From positions 448,001 through 512,000 of the forward strand of contig CAVYSE010000011.1 in assembly GCA_963771075.1 (NCBI GenBank): a stretch of DNA of 64,000 bases. The letters run 5' to 3'. The DNA is from a candidate division FCPU426 bacterium. Its GTDB lineage: Bacteria; Oederibacteriota; Muellerivitia; Muellerivitales; Muellerivitaceae. Shown piece after piece: positions 2 through 64,000 of the stretch. Position 1 is the stretch's first letter; each line of letters opens with the position of its first letter. Position numbers and translations under genes: made by a program. A model generated the notes under the pieces. That model made no database searches. It saw only the letters and a program-made list of their open reading frames with translations, and was not told the DNA's origin.

Positions 2-268
2 TTGGTCGATACCGGGAAAACCCTCTTGGCGGTGCGGAAAAACCTGCTGCAAATGGGGGCGCGGGAAGTGAAAACGGCCGTAGCCTTGAACAAGAACGCG
101 GCTAACCGGGGGACGGCCGATCTTGCGGCGCTCGACCTCGGCCTTACCCCCGAGCACCTGCGCTTGAAGGGCCTGAAAGACCTTTGGGTTTACGGATACG
201 GCATGGATTGGAACGGTCTTCACCGGGAAGACCCGGCCATTGGGGCGTTGGAAATTAAGAAACTATAA
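2..268 (+). CDS. hpt: Hypoxanthine phosphoribosyltransferase, C-terminal part (5' truncated by window)
   Basis: PRPP-binding VDTGKTL and C-terminal VYGYGMD...R..P.I motif typical of HPRT. Confidence 0.8.
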   Translation: MVDTGKTLLAVRKNLLQMGAREVKTAVALNKNAANRGTADLAALDLGLTPEHLRLKGLKDLWVYGYGMDWNGLHREDPAIGALEIKKL

Positions 269-308
269 CTAAACCTAATTTCACCACAGGCCGCCTTTGG
301 CGGCCACA

Positions 309-379
309 TGCCGACCTTCTATAAACCCATTAAGGAGGTCGGTATAGTCCAGCTATCTTTGGCCCTAAGGGCCAAAGGG
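309..379 (+). mobile_element. 71-bp two-hairpin cassette, divergent copy 1
   Basis: Flanked by ACA on both sides; stems atgccgacc/ggtcggtat and ctttggccc/gggccaaag; same layout as 391-462 and 63917-63988. Confidence 0.65.
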
Positions 380-390
380 ACAGAGGCACA

Positions 391-462
391 TGCCGACCAT
401 CCATGAGACATTAAATGGGGTCGGTATTGTCCCGATTTCTTTCGCCTTTTGGGCGAAAGGGG
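391..462 (+). mobile_element. 72-bp two-hairpin cassette, copy 2
   Basis: Flanked by ACA; 3 mismatches to the copy at 63917-63988. Confidence 0.75.
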
Positions 463-600
463 ACAGAAAAAAGCCTTTCTAAACTCAAGGAATCTTAAAC
501 CAATTGTCCGGGTTTACTCTGTGTCTCCGTGTCTCTGTGGTAAATATCGGGTTTTGTTAGAGATTCTAAGTAGGGTTTGAAAAGAGGGAGGGGTTCCCGG

Positions 601-4203: not shown

Positions 4204-4333
4204 TAACCTCTGAAAAAGTCGGCTTTGCGGCCTTTTTCAGGAAGGCTAACAAGGTAACCCCACGATTTCCTGCGGAAATCTTTGGGATCGAGACCTCTGT
4301 TTGTCGCTCTTTTAGATTTTTTCAGATGTCTCA
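4204..4333. mobile_element. 130-bp MITE-like element, copy 1
   Basis: Colinear, highly similar copy at 39254-39383; terminal inverted repeat tctgaaaaa...tttttcaga; no ORF. Confidence 0.7.
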
Positions 4334-4391
4334 GGATAAAACTCCCGGATAGGCGTCCCAGCCGAAGGCTGGGCAAGCGCAGCTTAAAAAC

Positions 4392-16278: not shown

Positions 16279-18317
16279 ATGAAAAGCTTTAGAACCGCCA
16301 TAGGAACCGCCTGGAGGCTGGGAATTTTCTTGATCGGATGTTTCCTTTTGCCGGCTTATTCCGGGACTGCGGGAGAGTCCGCGAAACACCCGTTGATCGA
16401 AACGCTCCCCCCCGCGGGGGACGATCAAATCGCGCCTTTGTTAGTGTCGAAAGAAAAGGAACCCGCCTTAAGCCGTAAGCAATTGCTTTCCCTTCTTCGC
16501 CAAAACGTCAAATACGTCTTCGTGCTCTACCAGGAAAACCGCTCCTTCGATTCTTATTTCGGCACTTTTCCCGGGGTGGAGGGAATCTATTCCCGGCCCG
16601 CAAGCCTGACCCCGGGTTACTACCAATCGGTGGAGAACCCCGACGGGAAACTGGAAACCATCCAACCCTTCCTCATCGGACCGAAACAATTCGCCTCGGA
16701 CCTCGACGACACCAAGCACTCCCACCTGGCCCTGGTGCAGAAGATGGACCTGGTGGATCAGAAACCGAGGATGGACCGGTTCGCCCTGGCGGAAGAATTC
16801 AAGAATGGCACGGACACGCCTCCCGCCCTGGCCGACAAGCAATTCGGGGAATTGACCATGGCCCACGTGGACGGGGACACCATCCCCTTTCTCTGGCGCT
16901 GGGCCAATCGGTTCGTGATCTTCGACCATATCTTCCAGTTGATGGTGGGACCCTCGGGCCCGGGCAACCTCTCCATCATCGCCGCCCAAAGCGGGCAGAC
17001 CCAGGCCGCCCTCCACCCGAAGGAATTGGAGAAAGACTCCGGGAAGAAGGCCCCGGGGGAGCCGGTCCTCAACAGCAGCGACCCCTTCTGGGGCTCCCCC
17101 CAGGACACCTCCAACCCCAAGATGCCCGTGAACCCGAAGGAATTTTCCGGAAAGAACAAGGACAAGGAAACCTATCTGAACCAGACCTATGCCACCCTCC
17201 CCCTTTCGCTGGCCGGTTCCCAGGCCCAAAGCGAGACGGACGCCGACCCGCAAAAGGAAACCGACCTTGAGGACCTTCAGGAGGACGTGGCTTATTTGGA
17301 TCAGAAGGGCCAGGCGCCCATCCCCTGGGGCTGGTTCCAGGAGGGCTTCGGCCATCCCTTTACCGGGGACGACGACGCCACCGACGCCGAGGGACAGCAT
17401 TTATCCTATGTCACCCACCACAACGGACCCCAATATTTCGGCTACATCGTTCACAGCCCGGCCATGGCCGGCAGCCTCCAAGATCTGCAGGACTTTTTTT
17501 AATGCCGTCAAACAGGGCACCCTTCCCGACCAGGGCGGGGTCTTACTACGTGAAGGGGGGCGGCCATGAGAACCTCTTCGGTTTGAAGCCGGCCGATCCG
17601 GACGAGGCGGTCCGGAAAAGCTTCCTGGGGGACGACGACCATCCCGGGGGTTCGGACTCCCAGATCAGCGAGGCCATGCTGGCCCACGCCATCAACGCCA
17701 TCGCCCAAAGCAAGTATTGGAGCCAATGCGCCATCTTGATCACCTGGGACGACGAGGGCGGGTTCTACGACCACGTGCCTCCGCCCATGCATTCCTTCAC
17801 GCCGGACAAGGAACCCCTCACCGACGGGCCCCGGGTGCCGTTTTTGCTGGTATCGCCCTATGCCCGGACCCACGCGGTCGACCACGAGACGGGGGACCAC
17901 GGGTCGGTCGTCAAGTTCGTGGATGAGGCCTTCGGGTTGACCCCCCTGGCGAAACTGCCGGACGAGAGGAAGGGCCGCGAGATCGCCAAGAAAAAGTGGG
18001 GGCAGGACAACTGGGGTCCGGACGACGCGCTGACCCCGGACGTCACTGACCTGTTGTCCGGGTTTGACCCGGCCCGGTTGAAAGGCGATGCCCCGCCCCT
18101 GCCGCCTGACTACGCCATGATCCCCGAGGCCGTCGTGGCCAAGCTTCCGCAGGAGAGCGGGTACGGTTTGAAGGACATCGGAATTGTCCCCGTCGACCAA
18201 GCCCTGGGTTTGCCGAATCCTATCCCGGCTGATTTCAACCCGCGGCCCAAGACAGACCCCAGCCAACCGCCGTCAACGCCGGAGGCCCATACCGTTCTTC
18301 AAAAAATAAATCAATGA
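16279..18317 (+). pseudogene. Secreted phosphoesterase / phospholipase C (AcpA-like), broken by two +1 indels (real or sequencing error)
   Basis: VKYVFVLYQENRSFDSYFG, PSGPGNL, ITWDDEGGFYDHVPP, GPRVP; homology crosses three frames at 17494-17500 and ~17543-17545. Confidence 0.8.
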
Positions 18318-18321
18318 GAAA

Positions 18322-18365
18322 GGTATTGTCCTGACTTCCGTTGCCCTTTTGGGCAACGGGGGCAA
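18322..18365 (+). repeat. Solo copy of the cassette's second (bulged) hairpin
   Basis: ggtattgtcc-tgactt-ccgttgccc-tttt-gggcaacgg-gggcaa parallels 423-465. Confidence 0.55.
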
Positions 18366-23196: not shown

Positions 23197-23291
23197 ACCA
23201 CCAAGGCACAAAGACGCCAAGAACTACAAAGTTGTTTATGTTTAAAAACCCAAAATCTTGGTTTTCCTTGGCGACTTGGTGTCTTGGTGGT
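23197..23291. repeat. 8-mer-periodic inverted repeat
   Basis: accaccaaggcacaaagacgccaag ... cttggcgacttggtgtcttggtggt. Confidence 0.8.
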
Positions 23292-39253: not shown

Positions 39254-39383
39254 TAATCTCTGAAAAAGTAGGCTTTGCCGCCTTTTTCAGGAAGATACTC
39301 AAGGTAACCCCGCGATTTCCTGCGGAAATCTTTGGGATCGAGACCTCTGATTGTCGCTCTTTTAGTGTTTTTCAGAGGTCTCA
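39254..39383. mobile_element. 130-bp MITE-like element, copy 2
   Basis: Colinear with 4204-4333; TIR ctctgaaaaa...tttttcagag. Confidence 0.7.
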
Positions 39384-39440
39384 AATTAAAGATTTTGTTT
39401 GGGGATTTTGTGCCTTGTTGATGGATTTAAGTTTAGCGGT

Positions 39441-62761: not shown

Positions 62762-62808
62762 TAAAACCGAACGAAACGGCGAACCCACGGCCAAAACGAA
62801 CCCAAAGA

Positions 62809-62991
62809 CAACACGAAGTCACAAAGACACGAAGAAAGACCCGAAATTTTATTACGGCCTAGGCAAAGGCAAACCAACTTCCAACACGAAGACACAAAGC
62901 AACAAAGAACAACCCTAGCCAAAGATTTGGCTTAATCATTTAATATCGCCTTAATTTGTCTGCCTTTGTGGCTTAGAGTCTTCGTGTTGTC
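62809..62991. repeat. 8-mer-periodic inverted repeat with an extra internal arm
   Basis: caacacgaagtcacaaagacacgaag; caacacgaagacacaaag; ctttgtggcttagagtcttcgtgttg. Confidence 0.75.
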
Positions 62992-63026
62992 CTTTGGTTT
63001 TGAGGGTTTTGCGGGTTTGTCTTTCC

Positions 63027-63865: not shown

Positions 63866-64000
63866 CTAAGAATCTCTAACAAAACCCAATATTTACCACA
63901 GAGACACGGAGACACATGCCGACCATCCATGAGACATTTAATGGAGTCGGCATTGTCCCGATTTCTTTCGCCTTTTGGGCGAAAGGGGACAGAGTAAACC
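63866..64000. repeat. Inverted near-identical copy of 511-570, interrupted by the 72-bp cassette; runs off the window
   Basis: Reverse complement of 511-570 matches 63866-63916 plus 63992-64000 with 2 mismatches. Confidence 0.85.
63917..63988 (+). mobile_element. 72-bp two-hairpin cassette, copy 3
   Basis: ACA on both sides; absent from the homologous site at 520-522. Confidence 0.8.

Follow-up and report, generated by a model that had tools for sequence, protein, structure and literature searches.

A DNA unit of two hairpins and some 76 nucleotides, devoid of genes, whose central bases predict the two-base core at both of its ends

We analyzed a 64,000-nucleotide stretch of a candidate division FCPU426 genome (the window), in which four copies of a very small structured unit lie, three of them within copies of a larger repeat that acts as host. 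The features concerned are listed here.

259..566, plus strand: host MITE copy, 160 bp when empty, with imperfect terminal inverted repeats and TAA at 256-258 and 567-569
288..307, plus strand: 20-nt mini hairpin, at a C/A step in a ACCACAGAG repeat arm; a separate, smaller insert
308..381, plus strand: element copy 1, 74 nt from first A to last C; subtype T1; host site 1
C307/A308 and C381/A382, plus strand: left and right junctions of copy 1
345..347, plus strand: hinge (guide) triplet T-A-G of copy 1, whose T pairs with the first A and whose G pairs with the last C
390..464, plus strand: element copy 2, 75 nt; subtype T2; host site 2
427..429, plus strand: hinge (guide) triplet T-T-G of copy 2
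519..520, minus strand: empty host site 3, a C/A step on the minus strand; a full unit lies there in 10 of 29 MITE copies
18289..18363, plus strand: element copy 4, intergenic; left flank CC/A, not AC/A
63871..64000 and running past the window end, minus strand: second host MITE copy, with a unit at site 3 and none at sites 1 and 2
63916..63990, plus strand: element copy 3, 75 nt; subtype T2; fills host site 3; guide triplet T-T-G at 63953-63955

A first-pass annotation of the letters alone had described three units (309-379, 391-462 and 63917-63988) with ACA at both sides and without any ORF, and our analysis confirmed both points. Copy 4 had been overlooked. The repeated insertions proposed at 286-465 are indeed there, as two separate insertions at neighbouring sites (copies 1 and 2) and not as a head-to-tail array. 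Contigs from two other sequencing runs span the joint between copies 1 and 2, and copy 4 is likewise spanned by contigs of other runs, so the window copies are not assembly errors. Other repeats of the window are a 137-nt two-copy repeat (4204-4340 and 39254-39390) and inverted doublets of the CGCCAAG/CACGAAG type (23197-23291 and 62789-63000).

An iterative profile search of the 4.39 Mb genome returned 93 matches to the two-hairpin unit, which correspond to 91 distinct loci, and the same search of the reversed genome returned none; the family is therefore not a product of chance. The parse of the ends of these genomic copies omitted 7 reverse or broken parses and 11 unparsable candidates. With a covariance model, the unit was found in 22 of the 24 genomes of the taxonomic family, at 1 to at least 116 matches per genome (some counted on both strands), and in none of 16 other relatives outside it. 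One match in a genome of another phylum (G044) lies in a segment (L277:8000-14500) that holds three units and whose genes and composition are unlike its surroundings; this is probably a chimeric contig of an unrelated genome, and 120 other genomes of that phylum gave no match. One of 20 matches from a genome collection and one metagenome match were discarded as chance pattern matches. No match to the unit was found in plasmids or phages, nor in viral contigs searched with two patterns. The runs that contain the window are soil and bog metagenomes, and none of them is listed as an RNA run. Rfam gave only sub-threshold matches. A literature search, conducted mostly outside subscription journals, found no published description of the two-hairpin unit, and supplements may list similar repeats. 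This is an undescribed family of very small mobile units.

The host of copies 1 to 3 is a 160-bp MITE with TWA flanks, presumably IS5-like, which has 29 left ends in the genome and carries a ACCACAGAG inverted doublet. Eight of the 29 MITE copies are empty at all three sites, six are filled at site 3 only, four at sites 1 and 3, and one each at sites 1 and 2 (the window copy), at site 2 only and at site 1 only, the remaining 8 being truncated or unclear. All four filled and empty combinations of sites 1 and 3 thus occur. When the units are deleted in silico, the 159-160 nt empty form returns, and gain or loss leaves a single CA, which supports the proposed precise insertion. Both forms of one site are visible in the window: the reverse strand of 511-570 shows, without a unit, the site that carries one at the window end. 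The idea that insertion is restricted to ACCACAGAG repeats did not survive: units also occur in several other repeat families. Many copies are passengers multiplied by the host MITE, and several independent insertions, losses or conversions are still required. Against mobility, the four combinations of sites 1 and 3 could also arise by gene conversion among MITE copies.

Head-to-tail arrays do exist elsewhere: a relative (G014) carries 8 units with a period of 76, several dimers were found, and each joint holds a single pyrimidine-purine (YR) step. The 20-nt mini hairpin is nearly fixed in the host MITE family, and exact patterns found 22 filled and 3 unfilled ACCACAGAG arms in the genome; it may share its chemistry with the larger unit. 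Two units (G000:C25:2956 and G000:C25:47846) have a left flank from one arm of a host repeat and a right flank from the other, and are apparently chimeras from recombination between two neighbouring units. Neither excised circles nor allele-level presence and absence were seen in the assembled contigs, the material covered by this search. Other runs contain contigs that skip from 308 to 463/468; the most likely origin of these is paralogous MITEs without a unit, rather than alleles. Copy 4 showed no polymorphism in the contigs of other runs, and no orthologous empty site was found for it in the 5 relatives tried, where synteny is broken.

We then defined the ends of the unit by its base pairing, from a purine to a pyrimidine, which gives a length of 69-90 nt (median 78) over 188 parsed copies. 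Hairpin 1 opens with RTGCCGAC and closes on its own complement. After one unpaired base comes hairpin 2. It starts with GTACCGAT in the commonest form, whereas the window form has GTCCC, and its stem extends to the last base of the unit. Because the two hairpins are joined by this single unpaired base, the centre of the unit pairs with both of its own ends; in copy 1 the middle base of the T-A-G triplet is unpaired. The bases before the inner stem of hairpin 2 read A-T-N-G, the hinge base N being A in 111 copies, T in 34, C in 31 and G in 12. An A.C mismatch is conserved in 143 of the 188 copies and a one-base bulge is conserved too. In the commonest form the two hairpins are alike, and the unit resembles a head-to-tail dimer of a 38-nt hairpin.

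The three units first described fold into two hairpins on both strands with z scores of -4.8 to -7.7, and none of 200 shuffles was as stable. The compensatory change reported between copies 1 and 2 (G-C to C-G) is present. The three differences between copies 2 and 3, two of them read earlier as conversions of G.T wobbles on one strand, include one clear change from G.T to G-C and one that depends on the pairing register. They give no strand specificity, since copy 3 folds equally well on both strands (-24.3 and -24.1 kcal/mol). The broader claim of a strand-specific element is likewise unsupported, the commonest form being pseudo-symmetric and folding equally on either strand. The wobbles do not assign a strand either, G.T at hairpin 1 being mirrored by A.C at hairpin 2, and a count of G.T in 188 of 188 copies at hairpin 1 was discounted as a parser artefact.

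The unit had been described as bounded by ACA. This needs revision: the boundary is a shared 2-nt YR core, usually CA, and copy 4 has CCA on its left. A stands at position -2 in 18 of 56 CA-type contexts. Among 94 metagenome copies with both flanks, collected with a pattern that fixed the first A of the unit and not its flanks, the left base is C and the right base A in 91, and the base at -2 is C in 41, G in 24, A in 17 and T in 12. As the base at -2 varies, ACA is a feature of one host repeat. To read the core we searched 31 family genomes by the hinge alone, took 56 regions with a hairpin-like match and then read their junctions. A junction-blind parse of the collected DNA, with the orientation settled and 188 of 329 rows kept, yielded 188 copies in 74 contexts. 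Both ends have CA in 48 of 56 contexts with a T-N-G centre, CG in 8 of 10 with a C-N-G centre, and TA in 5 of 7 with a T-N-A centre; one further context has another hinge type. The hinge also predicts the outer, target-side bases (Fisher test over 74 contexts, with p 3e-7 for the left pyrimidine and 3e-11 for the right purine), the p values being overstated, since contexts share descent and variants were enriched on purpose, and serving as guides and not as exact probabilities. No target consensus beyond the two bases was found across the parsed contexts.

The CG variant is present in several contexts that are unrelated, and so is the TA variant, which suggests that the guide is inherited and that the target follows. 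Since three central letters predict a two-letter site, the unit likely carries its own targeting guide. We consider it very probable that the unit is mobile and that its core is set by this guide. The sequence fits a cut before the YR, between Y and R, or after it, with either strand active.

Covariation in the fold gave a strong signal of the hairpin type in two alignments. In the model-fitted alignment (A6) both partners have changed in 15 of 22 pairs. An alignment made with MAFFT alone, without the model (A3), shows such changes in 11 of 17 pairs; none of 500 shuffles scored as high and the slid controls were far lower. The arms covary as 1:2 and 3:4, a signal partly favoured by the design of the parser, and hardly at all as 4:1 and 2:3 (MI 0.02-0.05, at position 6), the latter weak signal not being built in. 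As far as sequence comparison goes, this pattern points to a folded single strand and not to double-stranded binding sites. When folded as circles, window copies 1, 2 and 4 are predicted to form a dumbbell in which the whole junction is paired except for the hinge base.

These data bear on one alternative, in which an enzyme that requires or duplicates a core of 2 bp (a serine recombinase, an IS110 recombinase or a DDE transposase) would integrate a circle of double-stranded DNA. The absence of terminal inverted repeats noted at first holds for the window copies but not throughout the family, where 45 of 83 arm sets have TIR-like outer arms. With these arms and its TG...CA ends, the commonest form would give a circle junction that is an inverted repeat around a central dinucleotide. 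According to the source cited, the cores of IS110 elements measure 2 nt and their targets include REPs (PMC12288879); two IS110 families reside in the genome. However, a double-stranded circle explains neither the hairpin-type covariation nor the match of hinge and core, and the window-type copies lack TIRs yet were recently amplified. The lack of a target consensus beyond two bases also speaks against it, as do the unrelated ends and targets of the resident IS110 elements and the single serine recombinase domain match of this genome (G000). We regard this alternative as improbable.

The reading that we favour, with a probability of roughly one half, is that of a non-autonomous unit recognized by its structure, which an HUH enzyme of the RAYT/TnpA-like kind would mobilize in trans in the form of a dumbbell circle of single-stranded DNA. 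In single-stranded DNA, the two hairpins would bring the 3' C beside the 5' A, opposite the one-base bulge. An HUH enzyme encoded elsewhere would cut between Y and R and release the circle, which would then enter another Y/R step to which these two guide bases can also pair. Repeats rich in hairpins would be the preferred targets, and the filled sites would be multiplied by mobile hosts, of which the 160-bp MITE is an example.

This proposal draws on the TnpA-REP of Marinomonas, which is described in the cited parts of one study as cleaving at CA, with a model in which T2 and G4 of a GTAG guide select the CA (PMC8266576). The same passages report that the third base is tolerated and that guide changes retarget the enzyme, and they also give its C/T position (PMC8266576). 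By analogy, the T-x-G guide of the unit, whose middle base is free, would predict the junction in the manner of the T2/G4 model outlined there (PMC8266576). The HUH rule is the best mechanistic match, and it would account together for the folding of single-stranded DNA, for the two-base specificity to either side of the cut and for tandems with a single core. That the enzyme itself is of the HUH type seems to us an even call.

Some results count against an HUH enzyme. None is linked in cis: no recurring recombinase or transposase was found beside the units among flanking ORFs in this genome and at 170 loci of relatives and metagenomes. This genome holds 20 Y1 matches, 3 of them IS200 and the rest of the TIRYT type, both types having their own unrelated ends, and no short RAYT. 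The resident 3-copy IS200 was rejected as a source of the unit for this reason, its ends being unrelated. Nor does Y1 track the unit, since G006 and G009 have 17 and 9 unit matches and no Y1 match, G010 has 3 Y1 matches and no unit, and Y1 is also common outside the family. The first-pass annotation had offered either an HUH/RAYT-type or an IS110-type enzyme as mobilizer; the former is still the best guess, but no link to IS110 was found, the ends and targets of the resident elements being unrelated.

We also searched for an autonomous relative. In this genome no long version of the unit with an ORF was found, no convincing pair of orphan half-elements flanking a gene emerged from 97 centre-motif and 9 left-motif orphans, and a DNA repeat census found no multicopy element with the unit's ends among genome repeats of at least 350 bp. 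A search for IS91-type Y2 enzymes gave no matches, its controls being blank too. Other matches in the genome are 10 to IS110, 11 to reverse transcriptases, 8 to tyrosine recombinases and 1 to a serine recombinase.

Several of the resident elements deserve description in their own right. The TIRYT-type Y1 genes (313-317 aa) sit in near-identical multicopy units with short GGGG(T/C)CAG inverted repeats, which look recently transposed, and several of these units have small duplications just beyond the right end. IS110 family 1 (8 copies) inserts into the TIRYT-type terminal repeats, and IS110 family 2 (2 copies) into a palindromic repeat also used by a group II intron. That intron is present in 10-11 near-identical copies, at one position just after the palindromic repeat.

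The lack of a linked gene, together with the presence of the unit across the whole family, could also mean that no dedicated enzyme exists, and that host nucleases, ligase and template switching at hairpins make the dumbbell and splice it, its spread being due to gene conversion and mobile hosts. Many copies do have long flanks in common with their host repeat, and rebuilt empty sites were paired in 39% of 51 cases, compared to 18% of 150 random intergenic CA (18 of 78 copies with uncertain ends were left out). What makes this reading improbable is that at least 74 different contexts have exact YR junctions, and that the conserved arm sequence, A.C mismatch and one-base bulge suggest a specific protein.

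Copying through RNA and reverse transcription, with a group II intron maturase or similar enzyme acting in trans, is slightly harder still to credit. The 11 reverse transcriptase matches of this genome belong to one multicopy intron, and the start RTGCC and usual end AY of the unit superficially resemble group II intron termini. The unit, however, has no intron domains and no Rfam match, the intron's own target is one specific repeat, and pairing of the unit with its target site stops at two bases.

The main rival is a tyrosine recombinase, either the single Xer-like enzyme or the trio of a RIT element, that binds the stems of the dumbbell and performs one strand exchange, resolved by replication. 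Integron attC sites and CTX phage provide precedents for folded-strand exchange by a tyrosine recombinase with resolution by replication. The centre of the unit would then act like the internal complementary region of DIRS elements. In DIRS elements, as the source cited describes them, the ends pair in the same topology and have a short core in common (PMC7192593). One Xer-like gene is conserved in 23 of 24 family genomes, with a 10-6-10 dif-like palindrome right before its start. In a post hoc comparison with the element-arm profile, the dif-like arm and the RIT arm of G000 fall in the top 0.03% of genome 9-mers. The four genomes richest in unit matches carry the G000-type dif-like arm, and close RitC homologs are present in G000, G014, G021 and G024.

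Other observations weaken this rival. Dif-like arms are unrelated in G023, G021, G005 and G017, which have 21-35 unit matches each, and units from genomes with a changed dif arm keep the usual arm motif. G025, G010 and G019 have an Xer ortholog and no unit. For RIT, close homologs occur in only 3 of 24 family genomes, and no close RIT was found in G018, G001 and G008 (53-106 unit matches; incomplete assemblies). The circle junction lacks a 6-8 bp spacer between arms and the insertions are dispersed, not at dif. Strand swapping, as these enzymes perform it, would not account for the dependence of the target base at -1 on the guide. We consider a tyrosine recombinase unlikely as the mover, a lead that is real but weaker than that to an HUH enzyme.

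The Xer-like gene (G000:C6:114167-115235) appears to be used instead of a XerC/XerD pair. The outer arm bases of its dif-like site differ even within a genus, both arms together, and identical sites occur across genera, which suggests cassette exchange. In the RIT element (G000:C5:131665-135175) each end has three arms and a hairpin, and the element adjoins a short perfect palindrome of the same arm. This palindrome is probably the target, because it lies at the opposite RIT end in G014, G021 and G024.

Compared to known systems, the unit works like REP/RAYT, PATE, SMR-A and SDR elements and departs from each family compared in a defining feature. Known HUH systems have a hairpin that is subterminal or has a GTAG foot, in contrast to the unit, whose stems run up to the cut. 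REPs and REPINs with their RAYT share with the unit a non-autonomous, intergenic, hairpin-based organization and a CA junction, according to the cited sections (PMC8266576; PMC6006769; PMC3116915). The choice of a dinucleotide by guide pairing, which characterizes REP/RAYT, probably has its counterpart in the genomic covariation of the unit. Unlike in REPs, the GT[AG]G foot is absent (none at the 5' end), the guide has a central position, from which it pairs with either end of the unit, and the hairpins stand in tandem and not as an inverted doublet. In addition, no REPtron was found, no Y1 family was found among the neighbours, and natural CG and TA variants exist.

PATEs of Haloquadratum resemble the unit in being free of transposase and in having palindromes near both ends that can be mutual direct repeats, and SMR-A of the same organism (about 110 bp) inserts into the palindromes of other elements by a mechanism that the cited passages leave undescribed (PMC3119063). 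The unit differs from both, as they appear there, by stems that reach the very ends and by a shared 2-nt core compared to a target of 4-6 nt (PMC3119063). IS110-family MITEs such as MITEPpu9 have, in the cited account, a 2-nt core, REP insertion and mobilization in trans, as proposed here (PMC12288879). The ends of the unit, however, do not match the resident IS110, no long target consensus exists and the guide is DNA in cis. In contrast to IS200/IS605 derivatives, the unit has YR at both flanks and no match to the resident IS200 ends, and in contrast to a classical DDE MITE, its internal hinge covaries with the flanking dinucleotide.

The SDR1-8 repeats of Nostoc (Elhai et al. 2008) are reportedly tiny structured units of 21-27 nt that insert precisely into repeats and into themselves. 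Compared to them, the present unit is about three times longer (69-90 nt), has another sequence and belongs to another phylum. SDRs are not known to show covariation between guide and junction. SDR5 is stated to insert at a fixed position of HIP1 in the passage cited (PMC4390886).

DIRS elements offer another parallel, one confined to topology. In the cited description both of their ends are brought together as a circle junction by an internal region that is complementary to the 5' end and, after it, to the 3' end, and a short core lies at both flanks, an arrangement that the unit shares (PMC7192593). In the same description DIRS elements are eukaryotic, measure about 4.8 kb, encode a reverse transcriptase and a recombinase, and have an internal region of 88 bp that is fully complementary, unlike the unit (PMC7192593). 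A bolder reading, which we hold only tentatively and think rather doubtful, is that the unit represents a class of its own among minimal mobile DNAs, namely a self-splinting dumbbell of 76 nt that programs its two-base target through its internal bases. Its mover would then be a housekeeping or undescribed enzyme (e.g. the single Xer-like recombinase) and not a known transposase, and the unit would correspond, in bacteria and without genes, to the circle junction of DIRS elements.

The family described here bears on how small repeats, REPs, SDRs and SMRs alike, move and become nested in other repeats. It is a sharply testable case, with exact ends, a predicted intermediate and three natural guide variants with matching targets, and it offers a short list of candidate enzymes within one genome. 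If the proposed reading is true, target choice would be directed by a guide, a DNA splint in cis, within a unit of 76 nt, and this would suggest either that Y1 enzymes have a further role or that insertion proceeds by a new chemistry.
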